A stretch of DNA of 64,000 nucleotides from an uncultured Desulfobacterales bacterium. Its GTDB lineage: Bacteria > Desulfobacterota > Desulfobacteria > Desulfobacterales > B30-G6. Shown here one piece after another: positions 9,641 to 55,316 of this stretch; the stretch's first letter is position 1, and each line of letters opens with the position of its first letter. The stretch is taken from the NCBI GenBank assembly GCA_964435695.1, contig CAYTAQ010000001.1:4580-68579 (forward strand), read 5' to 3'. The position numbers were made by a program, and so were the translations under genes. The notes under the pieces are model-generated. The model saw nothing but the letters and a program-made list of their open reading frames with translations. It was not told where the DNA came from and made no database searches.

Positions 9641-9816
9641 AGGGTTCCAGGAGTCGAGGGTCCCAGGGTTCGAGTGAAAAAACAAAAAAACAATCATCAA
9701 AACACAAAATTATTCAATTTCTTTTTCGCCCTTTCGTGATAAATGGGTTCTTCACATCCCATCTATCACATGGTTATTCCTCACTTGAACCCTCGAATCC
9801 TTGAACCCTTGGATCC
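9641..9816. repeat. nested-hairpin element, family A, full copy (between hslV and hslU)
   Basis: Outer arms are AGGGTTCCAGGAGTCGAGGGTCCCAGGGTTCGAGTGAAAA and CTCACTTGAACCCTCGAATCCTTGAACCCTTGGATCC. The interior holds A-rich and ATCATCAAAACACAAA sequence, then TTTCTTTTTCG..CCTTTCGTGATAAATGGGTTCTTCACA..ATCTATCACA. Confidence 0.85.
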
Positions 9817-9850
9817 TTTTTTCAACTGATGTTTAAAAGAACCAACAAAA

Positions 9851-22056: not shown

Positions 22057-22470
22057 AATCACCTCTTTTAATTGCTTGTATGCCGCTTTAATATGGTTTT
22101 TTGCAAAATCAGTCAAATTAGCCATATGATTACCGGATATACTTACGATCATTTGAGGTGTTCGTCAATAATAGCAAAAAAAAAGATTTTTTGATCCGAC
22201 AGATCACCGGCGTCCTGTTTGTCCCTCTCACCGGGCATGCCATGAAAACCCGGTATTAAGCTTCACGGTTGTCTTGGGCGGCGTGCTCATTTTCTCAAGC
22301 AGCGGAGGAATCTTATCACAGTATCTGAAACCAAAGGTCTTGAAGACCGTGCTTTGGCTATTATGCGGCCTGCTGCTTCTTATGATTATTACGGTGGACA
22401 GTCAACGGTTGCGCCTCTGTCCTGGCGTCTATCGCCGCGGCTCAAATGGCCATCAGTTCAGGTCTGAAAA

Positions 22471-22508
22471 TCCTGTTTCTGTATTCTGCCTCCTGTATTC
22501 TGTATTCT
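22471..22508. repeat. TATTCTGT-word block, near-identical to 43451-43482
   Basis: TCCTGTTTCTGTATTCTGCCTCCTGTATTCTGTATTC compares with CAGTATTCTGTCTCCTGTATTCTGTATTCTTG. Confidence 0.75.
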
Positions 22509-22582
22509 TTTTGTTTTTTTTATAGTATGTCCAAATATCTCTGACTGGTCCAAAAGGACCCGGTTTTATTCAATGGAATAAT

Positions 22583-28431: not shown

Positions 28432-28743
28432 CTATTGCGAAGTTTTTTTCCCTTTATCCACTTTGTTTTTGGGTTTTAATATCACTTCATCCTTTTTAAT
28501 CATCCCGAATTCTTTTCTTGCAATACTTTCAATATACTCCGGATCATTTTTCAAACGATCGATGGTCCGGTAGAGGGACAGGTTTTCCTGTTTAAGCCTC
28601 TCGTTTTCCTGTAGCAATCGATCTCTGTCGCTTTTGAGCTTAAAAAGATCGGCAAGTCCGCTGTCGCTGAACATGATAAACAACAGCAGGCAAAAGAGAA
28701 GAAGAATCGATATGCCGACGAATATTCTTTGTTTGGTGTTCAT
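28432..28743 (-). CDS. ftsB: septum formation initiator (FtsB/DivIC family)
   Basis: 103 aa with one TM helix followed by a coiled coil (LKSDRDRLLQENERLKQENLSL...DPEYIE..AR). Confidence 0.75.
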   Translation of the reverse strand: MNTKQRIFVGISILLLFCLLLFIMFSDSGLADLFKLKSDRDRLLQENERLKQENLSLYRTIDRLKNDPEYIESIARKEFGMIKKDEVILKPKNKVDKGKKTSQ

Positions 28744-28755
28744 TGGATACGCTAT

Positions 28756-43563: not shown

Positions 43564-43593
43564 TTGACATTCATGAAATCCCCTGTCATTAAT
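43564..43593 (+). promoter_or_regulatory. candidate sigma70 promoter of the ilv leader
   Basis: TTGACA (43564-43569) is followed by a 17-18-nt spacer and then CATTAA/ATTAAT (43587-43593). Confidence 0.4.
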
Positions 43594-43618
43594 GCTAAAA
43601 TTATTAAAAAAAGCAACT

Positions 43619-43711
43619 ATGGAAATGATTAAAACCAATAACACCCTAATTCTCGGCATTATTATCCTCGTCGTCGGCATACTTAGCCGCGTCGAGGTTC
43701 AGGGTTGTTAA
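43619..43711 (+). CDS. branched-chain amino acid leader peptide (30 codons)
   Basis: My translation is MEMIKTNNTLILGIIILVVGILSRVEVQGC-stop. Of the 30 codons, 14 are Ile, Leu or Val. A terminator follows and ilvB lies downstream. Confidence 0.7.
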   Translation: MEMIKTNNTLILGIIILVVGILSRVEVQGC

Positions 43712-43742
43712 TGGCTTAAATCTAACTTAATCAAACAAAAAA

Positions 43743-43778
43743 CCGTTACCAGCCCTGAGCCGGTAACGGTTTTTTTTT
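43743..43778 (+). terminator. intrinsic terminator (attenuator) between the leader ORF and ilvB
   Basis: CCGTTACC (43743-50) pairs with GGTAACGG (43762-69), with 2 further inner base pairs and a 5-nt loop. Nine T residues follow (43770-78). Confidence 0.8.
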
Positions 43779-43822: not shown

Positions 43823-43903
43823 GAGGGACCAAGGGTTCACGGGAGAAAATAATACAGATCATTGTATACACTCGAATCCTTGACCCCTCGAACCCTAGAA
43901 TCC
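43823..43903. repeat. family A outer-arm-only element upstream of ilvB
   Basis: GAGGGACCAAGGGTTCACGGGAGAAAA ... CACTCGAATCCTTGACCCCTCGAACCCTAGAATCC. Confidence 0.75.
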
Positions 43904-43995
43904 TTCTGGATAAAAACTCAAGCTGCAGTTTTCATTTAGAGGCGGGTGAGTTTTCCCCATTCAACAAATACGGACATTATGAGAGAGGTTTTTAC

Positions 43996-45681
43996 ATGAA
44001 ACTGACAGGTGCTCAAATTTTAATGAAAGTGCTGCAGGAAGAAGGCGTGGATACCGTTTTTGGGTTTCCCGGCGGTGTCGTCATCGACATCTTTGACGAA
44101 ATGGCACGTACCGATATTAAACATATTCTTGTCCGTCATGAGCAAGGTGCGGTCCATGCAGCAGACGGCTATGCCCGTGCCGGCAAAAAAGTCGGTGTTT
44201 GCATCGTCACCTCAGGCCCCGGCGCCACCAATACCGTCACCGGTATCGCGTCCGCGTATATGGACTCGATCCCGCTTGTCGTCATCACCGGTCAGGTATC
44301 CACACACCTCATCGGAAACGATGCCTTTCAAGAAGTCGATATCGTAGGGATAACACGCTCCTGCACCAAGCACAACTTCCTGGTCACACGTACGGAAGAT
44401 CTCCAACGAGTCCTTAAGGAAGCCTTTTATCTGGCCCGGTCAGGCAGACCGGGCCCGGTATTGGTGGATATTCCAAAAGATGTGAGCATCACCCGTATTA
44501 ACTACAAACCGCTGAACTCTGTTCGGATTCAATCATACAACCCCACTTACAAGCCGAATATGAAACAACTTAAAAAAGTTGCCGGTCTGATAAAAACATC
44601 TAAAAAGCCGGTCATTTTTGCAGGCGGCGGCATCATCCTTTCTCAAGCCGCCGAAGCCCTGGCTGAATTTGCACGCAAAGCAAATATCCCGGTGACTGCA
44701 TCGCTCATGGGACTTGGAGGATTCCCGGGTTCAGATCCTCTTTGGCTGGGCATGATCGGCATGCACGGCACGTACCGGGCCAATATGGCCGTCAGCAATT
44801 GCGATCTTCTCATCGGCATCGGCGTCCGGTTCGATGATCGCGTTACCGGAAAAACGGATGTCTTTGCCAAACAGGCAAAAATCGTACATATCGACATCGA
44901 TCCCGCATCCATCCGGAAAAACGTCCCGGTAAGCATCCCTGTTGTCAGTGATTGTCAACAAGCACTCAAAGAATTGAACAAGCTCCTGGATGCGGCGGAT
45001 CTAACTGACATCCTCAGAGAACGCTTGCCATGGATTGAACAAATAGAAGAATGGAAAAGCACAAAGCCGCTGGAATACCGGCAAACCGACATCATTAAGC
45101 CACAGTTTGTCATAGAAAGGCTGTTTGAACTCACAAAAGGAGATGCCATCATCACCACGGAAGTCGGTCAAAATCAGATGTGGTCGGCCCAGTATTACCA
45201 CTTTGAAAAACCCAATCATTTTATCACCTCGGGCGGGTTGGGTTGTATGGGTTTTGGACTGCCGGCAGCCATTGGCGCGCAGGTTGCCAGGCCGGACAAA
45301 CTTGTCGTGGATATTGCCGGAGACGGAAGCATCCAGATGAATATTCAAGAAATGGCTACAGCCGTTCAATACCGTCTACCGATCAAAATCGTTATTCTGA
45401 ACAACGGCTATCTCGGCATGGTAAGGCAATGGCAACAGCTTTTTTATGACGGGCGCTATGCCGCCACGTGTATGGATTGTGCGCCTGATTTCGTCAAATT
45501 GGCGGAAGCCTTTGGTGCGGTGGGCCTCAGGGCCCAAAAACCGGAAGACGTTGAACCGGTTCTCACCGAAGGATTGGCTTTGCCTGAACCGGTCATTATG
45601 GATTTTGCCGTCGAAAAAGAAGAGTGCGTGTATCCCATGGTACCGGCCGGTGCGCCCATTACGGAAATGCTCTTGGCATAA
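43996..45681 (+). CDS. ilvB: acetolactate synthase, large subunit
   Basis: 561 aa ThDP enzyme with MKLTGAQILMKVLQEEGVDTVFGFPGG and GGLGCMGFGLPAAIGA...GDGS..MNIQE. Confidence 0.95.
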   Translation: MKLTGAQILMKVLQEEGVDTVFGFPGGVVIDIFDEMARTDIKHILVRHEQGAVHAADGYARAGKKVGVCIVTSGPGATNTVTGIASAYMDSIPLVVITGQVSTHLIGNDAFQEVDIVGITRSCTKHNFLVTRTEDLQRVLKEAFYLARSGRPGPVLVDIPKDVSITRINYKPLNSVRIQSYNPTYKPNMKQLKKVAGLIKTSKKPVIFAGGGIILSQAAEALAEFARKANIPVTASLMGLGGFPGSDPLWLGMIGMHGTYRANMAVSNCDLLIGIGVRFDDRVTGKTDVFAKQAKIVHIDIDPASIRKNVPVSIPVVSDCQQALKELNKLLDAADLTDILRERLPWIEQIEEWKSTKPLEYRQTDIIKPQFVIERLFELTKGDAIITTEVGQNQMWSAQYYHFEKPNHFITSGGLGCMGFGLPAAIGAQVARPDKLVVDIAGDGSIQMNIQEMATAVQYRLPIKIVILNNGYLGMVRQWQQLFYDGRYAATCMDCAPDFVKLAEAFGAVGLRAQKPEDVEPVLTEGLALPEPVIMDFAVEKEECVYPMVPAGAPITEMLLA

Positions 45682-45693
45682 AAGGATGAACAT

Positions 45694-46182
45694 ATGGATG
45701 AAGAAAAGCATATTCTCACAATGATTGTTGACAATGAGCCCGGTGTGCTGTCGCGTGTCGTCGGCTTGTTCAGCGCCAGAGGGTATAACATTGAAAGCCT
45801 CTGTGTTGCGCCCACCATTGATCCCCAGGTATCCAGAATTACGCTCGTTACCAAGGCAAATCTGCCTGAACTCGAGCAAATTGAGAAGCAGTTGAGAAAA
45901 CTGATTAATGTCATTAAATTGAGGGATCTTTCAGGGAAAAATGCTGTCAGGCGTGAGATGGCTCTGGTTTGTGTAAAAGCAAAACCGGGACAGCGCGCAG
46001 AAATTTTAAGGATTGTCGATATTTTTCGCTGTAAGGTGGTTGATACAGGACTGGAACACTACATCATCGAAGTATCCGGCAATGAGGACAAGCTCAATGC
46101 ATTCATTAATCTTTTAAAACCCATGGGGATCAAGAAAATTGCACGGACAGGCGCCGTAGCACTTTTCAGAGAACCGAATTGA
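45694..46182 (+). CDS. ilvN: acetolactate synthase, small (regulatory) subunit
   Basis: 162 aa with an ACT domain N-terminus, HILTMIVDNEPGVLSRVVGLFSARGYNIESL. Confidence 0.93.
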   Translation: MDEEKHILTMIVDNEPGVLSRVVGLFSARGYNIESLCVAPTIDPQVSRITLVTKANLPELEQIEKQLRKLINVIKLRDLSGKNAVRREMALVCVKAKPGQRAEILRIVDIFRCKVVDTGLEHYIIEVSGNEDKLNAFINLLKPMGIKKIARTGAVALFREPN

Positions 46183-46202
46183 TAAAACAAAAGGAGAATT
46201 TC

Positions 46203-47249
46203 ATGGCGATCATTAATTTTGGTGGTGTCGAGGAAGAAGTCATTACATCGGAAGAATTCACATTGGAGAAAGCGAGAGAAGTGCTGGCAAAAGAAACCAT
46301 CGCCGTTCTTGGCTACGGTGTTCAGGGCCCCGGACAGGCGCTCAATATGCGCGATAACGGTCTTCAGGTCATTGTCGGTCAAAGACAAGGCGGTCAATCG
46401 TGGGATCGGGCAGTCGCCGACGGCTTTGTACCCGGCGAATCTCTTTTTCCCATTGAGGAAGCAGCGCAGAAGGCGACGCTGATTCAATTTCTCTTATCAG
46501 ATGCCGGTCAGGTTTCAACCTGGCCCATGGTAAAGAAAAGTCTCAATGAAGGCGACGCCCTGTATTTTTCACACGGCTTTTCAATTGCCTATAAAGATCA
46601 AACCAACATTGTCCCGCCACAAAATGTTGATGTGATTCTGGTTGCACCCAAAGGATCCGGCCGTAGCGTCCGCTCGAACTTCCTTGAAGGCAGCGGCATC
46701 AATTCGAGTTTTGCCGTTCATCAGGATTTTACCGGACGGGCAAAGGAAAGAGCCCTTGCGGCCGGTATTGCCATCGGGTCCGGTTATCTGTTTCCCACTA
46801 CATTTGAAAACGAAGTTTACAGCGATCTCACCGGTGAAAGGGGCGTTCTTATGGGCTGCCTTGCCGGTGTGATGGAAGCGCAATATCAGACCCTACGTAA
46901 AAACGGGCACAGCCCTAGCGAAGCCTTTAATGAAACCGTCGAAGAACTGACCCAGAGCCTCATTCGACTCGTTGCTGAAAACGGCATGGACTGGATGTTT
47001 TCCAACTGCAGCACCACCGCTCAAAGAGGTGCGCTCGATTGGGCACCCAAATTCCGGGATGCAGTACTGCCTGTTTTTGATAAATTATACGACAGCGTAA
47101 TTTCCGGCAAAGAGGTCAAACGTGTTTTGGATAAAAACAGCCAGCCCGACTACCGGGAAAAATTGCAGGAAGAGCTGAATGCCATCAAGAATTCAGAAAT
47201 GTGGCGAGCCGGTAAAGCGGTGAGGTCTCTGCGACCTGAAAATCGATAG
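46203..47249 (+). CDS. ilvC: ketol-acid reductoisomerase
   Basis: GYGVQGPGQALNMRDNG and SHGF are present. Start set at the ATG at 46203, which has an AAAGGAGA RBS. Confidence 0.93.
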   Translation: MAIINFGGVEEEVITSEEFTLEKAREVLAKETIAVLGYGVQGPGQALNMRDNGLQVIVGQRQGGQSWDRAVADGFVPGESLFPIEEAAQKATLIQFLLSDAGQVSTWPMVKKSLNEGDALYFSHGFSIAYKDQTNIVPPQNVDVILVAPKGSGRSVRSNFLEGSGINSSFAVHQDFTGRAKERALAAGIAIGSGYLFPTTFENEVYSDLTGERGVLMGCLAGVMEAQYQTLRKNGHSPSEAFNETVEELTQSLIRLVAENGMDWMFSNCSTTAQRGALDWAPKFRDAVLPVFDKLYDSVISGKEVKRVLDKNSQPDYREKLQEELNAIKNSEMWRAGKAVRSLRPENR

Positions 47250-47261
47250 CATAAATCAGGT

Positions 47262-47445
47262 AAGGATTCAAGGGGCCGAGGATTCAAGGATTCAAGTGAA
47301 AAAAACAGTCACCAAAACAAATAATATTGCCATTTCTTTTTCTTGTTTTTTGACCTTTCGTGTTTTGATGGCAAAGGAATTCATTAAATTCCGGCTATCA
47401 CAAACGCTTCACGTGGACCCTAGCCCCCTGGAATCCTTGAATCCT
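47262..47445. repeat. family A element, full copy (between ilvC and cimA)
   Basis: AAGGATTCAAGGGGCCGAGGATTCAAGGATTCAAGTGAAAAAAA ... ATTTCTTTTTC..CCTTTCGTGTTTTGATGG ... CTATCACA ... CTTCACGTGGACCCTAGCCCCCTGGAATCCTTGAATCC. Confidence 0.85.
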
Positions 47446-47468
47446 ATTATTAACAATGAGGTTATATC

Positions 47469-49088
47469 ATGAATGAACCGATCCTGCTGTATGACACAAC
47501 GTTACGCGATGGTACGCAAGGCGAAAACATCAATTTTTCTGCCGATGAAAAGATAAAGATTGCGGAACGTCTCGACGATATCGGTGTTCATTACATTGAA
47601 GGCGGATGGCCGGGCTCAAATCCTAAAGACATTCAATTTTTTGATCTGGCCAGGCGAATTAAATTCAAACAAACAAAAATAACCTCCTTTGGTGCAACCC
47701 GAAGACCGGGCATCGCGCCTGAGGATGATCCCAATTTGCATGCGCTGCTGGATAGCCATACCTCCGTTGTTACCATTTTCGGAAAAAGCTGGGATCTTCA
47801 TGTTGAGCGCATCATGAGCAATACCCTTGAAGAGAATATTAAAATGATCCGGGATTCCGTCGAATATCTCAAGGATCAAAAACGAGAAGTCATCTATGAT
47901 GCCGAGCATTTCTTTGACGGTTACAGGGATAACAAGGACTACGCGTGCCGGACATTGATACCTGCCGTCAAAGGCGGCGCTGAATTCATTGTTCTCTGCG
48001 ACACCAATGGCGGCACCCTTCCCCATGAAATTGAACAGATTATTCAGGAAGTTTCCAGGTGGCTGGAAAAGGAATTGGTTCATGCACCCGCTGATCTGAA
48101 AATCAAGCTGGGTATTCATGCCCACAACGATTGTGGGATGGCTGTGGCCAACTCCATAACCGCTGTGCGTTCAGGTATTTCAATGGTACAGGGAACCATC
48201 AACGGCTATGGTGAACGCTGCGGCAATGCCGATCTTACGACTATTATTCCGGTCATCAACACCAAGTTAAAGGGTATGTGCATCCCTCATGAGAACTTGG
48301 CCCAATTAAGATCATAGTCCAGGTTTGTCAGCGAAACAGCCAATCTTGTTCCCTTAAACTCCCGTCCATTCGTCGGCAAAAGCGCCTTCACCCACAAAGG
48401 AGGTGTTCATGTCAATGCCGTCATGAAACTCCCCGGTGCCTACGAACATATGAATCCGGAAATTGTGGGAAACACCCGTCGGGTCCTGGTATCGGATCTT
48501 TCCGGCAAAAGCAATATCGAGTACAAGGCAGAGGAATTCGGTGTAAAGCTGGACGGAAACGGCCATGACAGTCAGCAAATCGTTACCAAAATCAAAGAAT
48601 TGGAACAGGATGGATATCAATTCGATGTGGCGGACGGATCCTTTAAGATTCTGGCGGAAAAATTGACGGATCAGTTTAAACCTTTATTTGAGCTTGAATC
48701 CTTTAGGGTCACTATCGAAAAGGACAAGGATCAACCCTGCACAGCCCATGCAACCGTTAAAATCCGTGTAGATAATCGAAACGAAATAACGGCGGCAGAA
48801 GGATATGGCCCGGTCAGCGCGCTGGACAATGCCCTTCGCAAGGCGCTCGATAAATTTTATCCGGATCTTGATACCATGCGACTAGTGGATTTTAAAGTTC
48901 GTGTCATTGACGGCCGTGCAGGAACAGCGGCAAAGGTCAGGGTTCTCATCGAATCCCGCGATCAGGATCAGATCTGGAGCACCATCGGTGTGTCCGAAGA
49001 CATCATTGAAGCCAGTTGGCAGGCCCTGGCCGACAGTTTTCAATATAAGCTTGCCCACGAAAAAAAGATCAGGAGTACGGAAGAATGA
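47469..49088 (+). pseudogene. cimA: (R)-citramalate synthase-type (LeuA-family) gene interrupted by one in-frame TAG at 48315-48317
   Basis: ORFs 47469..48317 and 48423..49088 are in the same frame. Reading through the TAG gives ...[53 protein letters not shown]..., a continuous ~539-codon LeuA/CimA-family sequence (LYDTTLRDGTQ, HAHND, HKGG). Confidence 0.8.
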
Positions 49089-49239
49089 TTCAAACAGCTC
49101 GCTCAAAGGAAGGAACCAACGCCGCAGGACCCTCCCGGGGTATCCTGCGGCCTATGCTCGGTATTGTTTTATCCAGTAAGCATAGAATTCTTTAGTTGCT
49201 ATTAATTATGGATCATTACCAAATTAGTTGGTCCGAATT

Positions 49240-49393
49240 AAGGATTCGAGGGTTCGAGGGTTCGAGTGAAAAGCTTAAAAGTTACAAAGAATAAAAAGGG
49301 GAGATCGGAGTTGTCGAGAGAATGCTATAAGCGATGATCAAACCCCTGGAAAACAAACACTTGAATCCTGGGGTCCTGGACCCCTCGGACCCT
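49240..49393. repeat. family A outer arms with a different centre (between cimA and leuA)
   Basis: AAGGATTCGAGGGTTCGAGGGTTCGAGTGAAAAG ... CACTTGAATCCTGGGGTCCTGGACCCCTCGGACCC. Confidence 0.8.
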
Positions 49394-49454
49394 TTATCCC
49401 AATATGAATTGGGAGAAGAATGCTAATTATCAACAATTACATTGGAGAATAACA

Positions 49455-50993
49455 ATGCCTGACTATATAAAAATTTTTGATACCACCCTTAGAGACGGAG
49501 AGCAATCGCCGGGTGCAAGCATGAATGCCGGTGAAAAACTTCGTCTGGCAACACAATTGGAAAACCTGGGCGTCGATGTTCTGGAAGCCGGCTTTCCGGC
49601 GGCTTCTGATGGCGACTTTGAAGCTGTTTCCGCCATCGCTCAAAAACTCAAGCGAACGGAAGTCGCCGGCCTTGCAAGAACGTCAAAAGAAGATATCGAC
49701 CGCGCCTGGGGCGCTGTCCGGCATGCAGTCAAGCCTAAAATACACACGTTTATTGCAACATCCGACATTCACCTGGAATACAAGCTGAAAATGACCCGGG
49801 AGCAGGTCGTCCAGGCTGCTGTCGATGCTGTAAAATACGCCAAGTCTCTCACCGATAACGTAGAGTTTTCAGCTGAAGACGGTTCCCGCAGCGATCGTGA
49901 TTATCTCTGTAAGGTATTTGAAGCAGCCATTACGGCAGGCGCTGAAACGGTTAATCTGCCGGATACTGTCGGATATGCGGTTCCCCGGGAATTTGCCGAA
50001 CTGATACGATACGTCAAAGAGCATACACCCAACATCCACAAGGCAACGTTGAGCGTCCATTGCCACAATGATCTGGGATTGGCCACAGCCAACACCCTGT
50101 CCGCCATCGAAGCCGGTGCAAGACAAGTCGAGCTGACCATCAACGGTATCGGCGAAAGGGCCGGCAACACATCCATGGAAGAAGTGGTAATGGCCATCAA
50201 TACGCGGCCGGCCTATTACAATCTGAGCACCGGTATCAAAACCGATCTGATTTTCCCCACCAGCAGACTGGTAAGCATGATCACCGGTATTATCGTCCAG
50301 CCCAACAAAGCCATTGTCGGTGCCAATGCATTTGCTCATGAGGCCGGCATCCATCAGGATGGTGTGCTGAAAAACCGGATGACCTATGAAATCATGAGAC
50401 CGGAAACCATCGGCCTCAGTAGAAATAAACTCATACTCGGCAAGCATTCCGGCCGGCACGCACTTCGCGAACACTTGAAGGACCTGGGGTATGATCTCTC
50501 TGCCGATGAACTCAATACGATCTTCCAGCTGTTTAAAGAATTGGCGGATAAAAAGAAACATGTAGTCGATGAAGACCTGGAAGCGCTGGTTACCCAGGAA
50601 ATATTAAGAACCCAGGAGGTGTTCAAATTGGAATATCTCCATGTCACCAGCGGGACCACCGTCATGCCCATGGCAAGCGTCAAGCTCTCCATACATGGAA
50701 GATCTTTAAAGGGTGCCGGTTACGGCAACGGTCCCATTGATTCGGCATTCAATACCATCGCCAAACTTACCGGTACCGAATCCGAGTTGCTGAGATTTTC
50801 AGTGAGTGCCTTGACAGGCGGCACCGATGCACAAGGTGAAGTGACGGTCCGACTGGGTGAAAAGGGCCTGGTTGCACTGGGAAAGGGCTCTGACGCCGAC
50901 ATCATCATTGCCAGCGCCAAGGCCTATATCAACGGGTTGAACCGGCTGGAATATTTAAAAGAACATCCGGTGCAGGCGGCGCAGTCTTTCTAG
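49455..50993 (+). CDS. leuA: 2-isopropylmalate synthase
   Basis: MPDYIKIFDTTLRDGEQSPG, HCHNDLG and HEAGIHQDG are present, with a C-terminal LeuA dimer/regulatory domain. Start set at the ATG at 49455, which has a GGAGA RBS. Confidence 0.93.
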   Translation: MPDYIKIFDTTLRDGEQSPGASMNAGEKLRLATQLENLGVDVLEAGFPAASDGDFEAVSAIAQKLKRTEVAGLARTSKEDIDRAWGAVRHAVKPKIHTFIATSDIHLEYKLKMTREQVVQAAVDAVKYAKSLTDNVEFSAEDGSRSDRDYLCKVFEAAITAGAETVNLPDTVGYAVPREFAELIRYVKEHTPNIHKATLSVHCHNDLGLATANTLSAIEAGARQVELTINGIGERAGNTSMEEVVMAINTRPAYYNLSTGIKTDLIFPTSRLVSMITGIIVQPNKAIVGANAFAHEAGIHQDGVLKNRMTYEIMRPETIGLSRNKLILGKHSGRHALREHLKDLGYDLSADELNTIFQLFKELADKKKHVVDEDLEALVTQEILRTQEVFKLEYLHVTSGTTVMPMASVKLSIHGRSLKGAGYGNGPIDSAFNTIAKLTGTESELLRFSVSALTGGTDAQGEVTVRLGEKGLVALGKGSDADIIIASAKAYINGLNRLEYLKEHPVQAAQSF

Positions 50994-54119: not shown

Positions 54120-55316
54120 GTGACGATTATACCGTTCCCACAGTTGGAAGGCGCGGACCTTGTCGTTGATGCCGTATATGAAGGAAACGACTCAGGCAAC
54201 CTTGCAGACGATCCGATTGCGCGATTGCTGAAAGGTGGAAATGCCGGTAATTTCAGATATTGCGGCTCCATTGCCGACCTCAGATATCTCATCGTGTGCA
54301 GCTTAAAAGAAGATACCGACTGGCAGGACATCGTGGATGTGGAATCCGGAACCTTTATCTGTTATGGCGACAATCGGAAACCGGGCCATGACCTGCACGA
54401 CACCCCGAAGAACGAAAACGTAATCCTACGAAATATTTTTAATTGTCTCCACCGGCACCCAAACCCCCGCGTCGGCACCCCGCCCGTGTTTCTTTTCAGC
54501 AAGCACCCCACACCAAACAGTCCGCGCTCGGTCCAATTCAGAGGTGTTTGCGCGCCTGGCGCCCTTCATCTTAATCGGGAAGAGGCGCTTATTTCCGTCT
54601 GGAGAATCACGGATGCACAAAGATTCCAGAACTATCAGGCCACATTCACCATTCTTGATATCCCGGTGGTTTCCAGAAAATGGATTGCGGCGCTTGAATC
54701 GGGTCAAACCGACTCAAATCCTGCTCCCGTTGTTTGGAACATGTGGCTGAAAAGCGGGTTATACCGTCCGCTGCAGGCAAAACATACAGCCCATGTTAGA
54801 TCTATTGCGGAACAATTGCCTCATGAAGATCCCAAAAAAGCGTTGCTTTTCAAATTATACCGATATTTCAACGCAGCACCGGGCCGGTTTGAATATTTTG
54901 CAGCCGACATTTACCGCATGTCTGATTCCCGTGTCATTGTTGAAGGGGTTACCCGAAATACGGTTGACGGTGGCTACGAGGTCTCCGGGCGATACAGATT
55001 GGGGCTGGCTGCGGATCCTATTCATCTGAAATTTACCCTTGAGGGGAAATGTTATAACCCGGGTTTTGGCCAAAGAAAGCGAAAATCCGTTGGTATAAAG
55101 GAAACATCCCGATTAATTTCCCGCTTAAAAAGCCGGCGGATCGGCGTACTGGTCACCACATCGGTGGTGGCGGAGCAAGCCTATCAGGAAACCAGGGCCG
55201 AAAAACACCCGATGATATTTTTATGCGGTTCGGATATCGTGGACATCCTCTATGGCAGGGGCATCAACACCGTAAAAGCGCTGGAGGCATGGCTTTCTGA
55301 AAATTATCCTGCTTGA
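54120..55316 (+). CDS. modification-dependent (type IV-like) restriction endonuclease: SRA/PUA-like N-domain + Mrr-type nuclease C-domain
   Basis: The C-terminus has an Mrr_cat-like layout: FEYFAADIY...VDGGYEVSG...LEGKCY...IGVLVTTSVVAEQAYQE...IFLCGSDIVDIL (D...ExK). The N-terminus has an SRA-like pattern, IVCSLKEDTDWQD..D.ESGTFICYGDNRKPG. The start is GTG with an AAGAGG RBS. Confidence 0.65.
   Translation: MTIIPFPQLEGADLVVDAVYEGNDSGNLADDPIARLLKGGNAGNFRYCGSIADLRYLIVCSLKEDTDWQDIVDVESGTFICYGDNRKPGHDLHDTPKNENVILRNIFNCLHRHPNPRVGTPPVFLFSKHPTPNSPRSVQFRGVCAPGALHLNREEALISVWRITDAQRFQNYQATFTILDIPVVSRKWIAALESGQTDSNPAPVVWNMWLKSGLYRPLQAKHTAHVRSIAEQLPHEDPKKALLFKLYRYFNAAPGRFEYFAADIYRMSDSRVIVEGVTRNTVDGGYEVSGRYRLGLAADPIHLKFTLEGKCYNPGFGQRKRKSVGIKETSRLISRLKSRRIGVLVTTSVVAEQAYQETRAEKHPMIFLCGSDIVDILYGRGINTVKALEAWLSENYPA

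Follow-up and report, generated by a model that had tools for sequence, protein, structure and literature searches.

The ilv-leu gene string and its interrupted cimA

The window, by which we mean the whole 64-kb stretch of DNA that was analyzed, is part of a 77,161-bp contig in the source NCBI record and carries on its forward strand a string of genes in the order ilvB-ilvN-ilvC-cimA-leuA. The gene for the large subunit of acetolactate synthase, ilvB (43996-45681; TIGR00118, 834.6 bits), is followed by that for the small subunit, ilvN (45694-46182; NF008864, 214.8 bits), by the ketol-acid reductoisomerase gene ilvC (46203-47249), which ends in TAG as its normal stop codon, by cimA (47469-49088) and by the 2-isopropylmalate synthase gene leuA (49455-50993; NF002086, 784 bits), whose likely start is the Met of MPDYIK. 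Upstream of ilvB, on the same strand, the sequence and the ORF list both reveal a leader peptide ORF (43592-43711) that encodes ...TLILGIIILVVGIL...; read from its internal Met at 43619, the peptide is MEMIKTNNTLILGIIILVVGILSRVEVQGC and has a high content of Ile, Leu and Val. It is closely followed by a strong attenuator/terminator hairpin with 20-nt arms (90% complementary) and then a T-run (43734-43778). We found no Rfam match for the region 43592-43778, and we take its combination of leader peptide, hairpin and T-run to be a classical branched-chain amino-acid attenuator. Both the gene order and the leader with its hairpin agree with the initial annotation, which had described an attenuator-controlled ilvBNC-cimA-leuA string.

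The spacers of the string have features of their own. A repeated element occurs at 43832-43905 upstream of ilvB, at 47263-47445 between ilvC and cimA and at 49241-49395 between cimA and leuA, as well as at 9641-9817 between hslU and hslV, and consists of two inverted arms of about 38 nt, approximately 100-107 nt apart, that are built from 8-nt periodic GGRTTCRA units (e.g., AGGATTCAAGGGGCCGAGGATTCAAGGATTCAAGTGAA). The motif GGATTCRAGG, allowing at most one mismatch, occurs 28 times versus 11.5 expected. The element looks MITE- or REP-like and is absent from the cimA-leuA spacer of L082, the locus of the nearest relative. A hairpin (GCCGCAGGACC...GGTATCCTGCGGC) at 49121-49150, just downstream of the cimA stop codon, has been kept in L082 (at about 1700-1735) though the rest of the spacer has diverged, and may serve there in termination or in regulation between the two genes.

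Translation of 47469-49088 (539 codons) gives a frame with a single internal stop in addition to its terminal TGA. The sequence at the site is CAA TTA AGA TCA TAG TCC AGG TTT GTC, in which TAG, at 48315-48317, is codon 283, and the two ORFs of 47469-48317 (282 aa) and 48423-49088 (221 aa) share a common frame with only this TAG intervening. In the source record both fragments are annotated as separate proteins. Codons 1-282 (47469-48314) encode the catalytic HMGL-like TIM-barrel part of the enzyme, as PF00682 matches on the 282-aa fragment indicate, and codons 319-539 (48423-49088) encode the remaining accessory domain and the LeuA_dimer regulatory domain (PF22617 and PF08502 on P0126, the 221-aa fragment). 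Between them, codons 284-318 (48318-48422) are beyond the reach of any restart, there being no in-frame ATG, GTG or TTG between the TAG and the ATG at 48423, and it is in this segment that the FTHKGGVH motif of accessory subdomain I is found, with HKGG itself at codons 309-312 (48393-48404).

We identified the product of the uninterrupted frame as a citramalate synthase of the TIGR00977 type, within the LeuA-dimer superfamily. With X in place of the stop, the read-through product scored 732.1 bits against TIGR00977 in a profile search (cut-off 450), the match being one stretch in which residues 5-532 align with profile positions 2-521 of 526, whereas all LeuA and homocitrate synthase models fell below their cut-offs (the best LeuA model reached 289 bits against a cut-off of 517). 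The three-part architecture of HMGL-like barrel (PF00682), accessory HCS_D2 (PF22617) and LeuA_dimer (PF08502) is present in the same domain order in the read-through product and its homologs, and the closest of these, an uninterrupted metagenome protein of 538 aa (P0001), is 89% identical over 100% of the length. As the match is colinear through the junction, the two ORFs are not paired by chance. CimA relatives have been characterized biochemically from Methanocaldococcus jannaschii and Geobacter; citramalate synthase condenses pyruvate and acetyl-CoA and is inhibited by isoleucine. In common with such genes, cimA here sits among ilv and leu genes and adjoins a separate, bona fide leuA, but it departs from the TIGR00977 enzymes in that its frame is cut by TAG at codon 283, with the result that the encoded polypeptide stops after the barrel. 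The view of the initial annotation that this is a CimA-type LeuA paralog is confirmed by the full-length, equivalog-level match, and its two further statements about the gene, that a single in-frame TAG splits it and that re-initiation would lose the HKGG region, are borne out by the translation and by the order of HKGG and the restart ATG.

Ancestry of codon 283 and condition of the gene

What did codon 283 encode before it became a stop? The initial annotation had proposed an alignment to CimA orthologs, and in a MAFFT alignment with the best 120 database matches (73-89% identical, 532-559 aa in length, all uninterrupted) the stop falls in a column occupied by Leu in 101 homologs, by Val in 16 and by Ile in three. 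The same column in 80 more distant genome loci, which among the matches listed have identities of 51-73% and none above 73%, holds Leu in 40, Val in 25, Thr in eight, Ile in six and Phe in one. No stop codon occurs at this column in the best 120 homologs or in the 80 genome loci among the matches listed. Codon 283 is of Leu ancestry, as the column itself records. The nearest relative (P0001/L082, 89% identical) has CTG at this position; TTG, a common codon in the window, where it makes up 354 of the 1639 Leu codons, differs from TAG by a single base, and the simplest history is a change from TTG to TAG through one T>A substitution at 48316.

Other than the stop, cimA is undamaged. At the 252 columns in which at least 98% of the 120 homologs agree, the only deviation is at residue 2, in the ragged N-terminus, and all 147 highly conserved columns downstream of the stop are intact. 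By the Nei-Gojobori method, dN/dS relative to L082 is 0.040 for cimA (0.048 before the stop and 0.029 after it) and 0.038 for the adjacent leuA, for which dS is >1. The dN/dS of cimA equals that of leuA, and the gene was under normal purifying selection until very recently. The earlier statement that cimA shows no other decay is thus upheld both by the conserved columns and by the dN/dS of 0.04. All of this is familiar from recent nonsense pseudogenes and segregating null alleles in bacterial populations, which likewise have a stop one substitution from the orthologous sense codon and neither secondary decay nor relaxed constraint; the indirect sign of within-population variation at the site, described below, is a further likeness, and we noticed no unusual difference.

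We also considered whether a split cimA recurs in other genomes, as many database proteins begin at the Met of the 221-aa fragment (MK.P.AYEH), but rejected these as gene-calling and assembly artifacts. The closest protein that starts at that Met (P0160) does so 34 nt from a contig edge, the assembly of another (P0249) has ilvB, ilvC, cimA and leuA all fragmented, most likely by frameshift errors, and two more (P0212 and P0240) have frameshifted tails. Separately, the sole other internal stop in the 80 cimA loci among the matches listed is in L040, from the MAG Bacillota bacterium AS09scLD_187; it is also a TAG, at about codon 355 (...ETEKI*ETNKR...), a poorly conserved position unrelated to codon 283.

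UAG in the window and the site in the wider population

TAG is a normal and frequent stop codon in the window, in which the 43 other genes end in TAG (14, including ilvC and leuA), TAA (16) or TGA (13). Pairs of same-frame open segments, each of at least 90 codons, yielded no other gene in the window split by an in-frame TAG: an open segment at 22175-22522, which precedes a B12-radical SAM gene, matched no family, and each of the remaining candidates is the shadow of a gene encoded on the other strand. No tRNA and no Rfam family were found in the 64-kb window, and nor was any pyl-like gene among its approximately 43 ordinary housekeeping genes (dapF, lysA, argHGDB, hslUV, xerC, coaBC, murJ, leuS, rng/rne, secDF, dprA, topA, pyrD, degP and others). 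The predicted folding of the 120 nt after the UAG is no more stable than that of shuffled sequence (z = -0.77).

Near-identical contigs of the same population are present in three JGI metagenomes (3300063170, 3300062771 and 3300031277). Three of these contigs (L083, L084 and L085) are 100% identical to window positions 45301-47022, and a fourth (L081, from sample 3300063170) matches positions 46940-48315 except for one synonymous change, 48041 T>C. This SNP, at position 1101 of L081, exchanges the Ile codons ATT and ATC. Taken together, contigs from the three samples reproduce window positions 45301-48315 with a single synonymous difference, and with such identity over approximately 3 kb in three metagenomes the population is nearly clonal.

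The product of the partial gene on L081 is exactly the 282-aa fragment, yet it has no stop codon, since the contig terminates at 48315, the T of T-A-G and the last base before the variant. Contigs built from a de Bruijn graph end at the last base common to two paths, as at a SNP branch. Consequently, a contig end on the T of T-A-G is what such a branch would leave, and position 48316 is probably polymorphic in the population. Could the break be a coincidence? It could, as coverage in the JGI samples is low and the contigs of the organism there (approximately 1.2-1.7 kb) have ends that otherwise vary among samples; nevertheless, we estimate the chance of a random break at 48315 to be below about 1%, counting a break within the three positions that yield a 282-aa product and summing over the few samples in which the organism occurs. 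The end of L081, a single contig rather than a read count, favors a real site with variation in the population and speaks against a one-off consensus error as well as against fixation of the nonsense allele.

Neither DNA nor protein searches found a same-population contig or protein that crosses the site with either allele. A 25-mer from right after the stop and a 29-mer from the C-terminal half have no exact match in the metagenome DNA collection, which evidently lacks these samples, and the index, which is without the source contig, has none of the exact products sought (the 256-aa and 221-aa downstream products, LeuA in both start variants and IlvC). Protein searches with the 164 residues that follow the stop, and with a 108-aa segment centered on it, likewise gave no same-population fragment and no sense allele.

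Status of the cimA allele and its consequences

The explanation we favor, and think probable, is that cimA carries a real and very recent loss-of-function allele, TTG>TAG at Leu-283, which is probably segregating. A T>A change at 48316 would have turned Leu-283 into an amber codon in a natural population of an uncultured Desulfobacterales-type bacterium; TAG is the allele in the assembled genome, but it is probably not fixed and probably shares the population with a sense allele at the same base. The initial annotation had listed a very recent nonsense mutation first among three possibilities, and with the absence of decay, a dN/dS of 0.04 and a contig break at what is probably a variable base, it is the best supported of them.

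Is the base itself real? A sequencing, assembly or consensus error, with TTG (Leu) as the true majority codon, an intact cimA and the A as a miscall, polishing error or minority variant, was the second of the earlier possibilities, and while it still stands, we consider it less likely, because the 43 other genes in the 64 kb are undisrupted and 3 kb of the locus was reproduced, with one synonymous difference, in three independent assemblies. By these signs the assembly looks accurate. It is true that the stop is one base from a sense codon in a gene with no other decay, that the source is a metagenome-type NCBI contig and that internal stops, present in approximately 1 of 80 cimA loci among the matches listed (e.g., L040), are not rare in MAG data. 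Yet random consensus substitutions that create a stop are expected at far less than one per genome, real nonsense alleles are common, and a random error leaves the exact end of an independent contig at 48315 unexplained. That contig end cuts both ways: if it marks a branch at 48316, then there is also a sense allele, and this could be the more abundant of the two.

The last of the earlier possibilities was that UAG is recoded, and for this we found no support. Decoding of the UAG in vivo by pyrrolysine machinery or another amber suppressor, with full-length CimA made perhaps conditionally, only when the suppressor is expressed, seems to us very improbable, the least probable of the explanations considered. 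The otherwise perfect preservation of cimA would suit it, and Pyl-using bacteria can keep TAG stops, so that avoidance of TAG as a stop, or the presence of other genes with in-frame TAG, would be supportive of pyrrolysine use but does not strictly define it; in the window 14 of the 43 other genes have TAG as their stop and no second gene with an in-frame TAG was found. Decoding of UAG with the help of pylTSBCD does occur in some marine Desulfobacterales, in which the reported pyrrolysine site is the conserved active-site position of trimethylamine methyltransferase (PMC8318568; Kivenson et al., 2021). The genes for that enzyme resemble cimA here in having an in-frame UAG within an otherwise conserved gene in members of the same order. 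There, however, the UAG is conserved among orthologs, lies in the active site and is accompanied by pylTSBCD, whereas in the unrelated enzyme CimA, which is not among the known Pyl families (the methylamine methyltransferases), it replaces a conserved residue in a mostly aliphatic column, is absent from the 120 best homologs and the 80 genome loci among the matches listed, and is confined to one near-clonal population, as a new mutation would be. Nor does the 64-kb window hold decoding machinery, there being no tRNA, Rfam match or pyl-like gene, and the RNA that follows the UAG is unremarkable in structure. An in-frame TAG in a lineage with some pyrrolysine users is, by itself, no evidence of recoding. 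Were UAG nevertheless decoded, the threonine-independent route to isoleucine would depend on expression of the suppressor, and cimA would provide a pyrrolysine or suppressed site outside the methylamine methyltransferases.

Might the allele instead be leaky, some CimA activity being left because the UAG is read through at a low level by near-cognate tRNAs or because the 282-aa and 221-aa fragments associate? Basal read-through of UAG occurs in bacteria, and a Shine-Dalgarno-like AAGGAGG (48397-48403) upstream of the ATG at 48423 might allow the C-terminal fragment to be translated. However, U directly after the stop, as here, is an efficient termination context in E. coli, the AAGGAGG is formed by the KGG codons and is 19 nt from the ATG, and even the two fragments combined would be without residues 283-318, including the conserved FTHKGGVH. 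We regard residual activity of this kind as very improbable, only slightly less so than recoding.

If the TAG allele is real, as we think probable, then what would it do to the enzyme? Translation would end after the TIM barrel, giving a 282-aa product without the accessory and regulatory domains, and a restart at the ATG at 48423 would still leave residues 283-318, FTHKGGVH among them, missing. [quoted passage not shown] LeuA-family enzymes truncated so that some of this domain is missing retain little of their activity (PMC9860122). Because these residues are lost even after a restart, we infer that CimA would be inactive in cells with the TAG allele, which would most likely have no citramalate synthase activity and would need 2-oxobutyrate or isoleucine from another source. 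Whether isoleucine auxotrophy follows in such cells is a matter of genes beyond the window, for example ilvA, a further cimA copy or a different source of 2-oxobutyrate. The initial annotation held that the status of cimA decides whether the organism makes isoleucine by the threonine-independent citramalate route; this is reasonable, with the qualification that the rest of the genome could contain ilvA or another cimA.

A null allele of a core biosynthetic gene at majority frequency calls for an explanation such as cross-feeding or an alternative pathway. The case is ordinary biology, and if null and intact alleles do coexist, they would constitute a small natural loss-of-function polymorphism in amino acid biosynthesis in a population of sediment sulfate reducers, one that, if confirmed, would bear on cross-feeding and gene loss without being new in kind. 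The main bearing is on annotation and metabolic reconstruction, in which this genome should count as cimA-null, or as cimA-polymorphic, rather than as "citramalate pathway present."

Elsewhere in the window, a small DivIC/FtsB-like septum-formation gene (28435-28755, reverse strand) follows murJ in the same frame with only the TGA of murJ between them; the pair is one of ordinary neighboring genes and no case of selenocysteine read-through. An AspBHI-like modification-dependent restriction endonuclease (RE_AspBHI_N and Mrr_cat domains) is encoded at 54120-55316, amid housekeeping genes and adjoining the gene for a PHP-domain protein.
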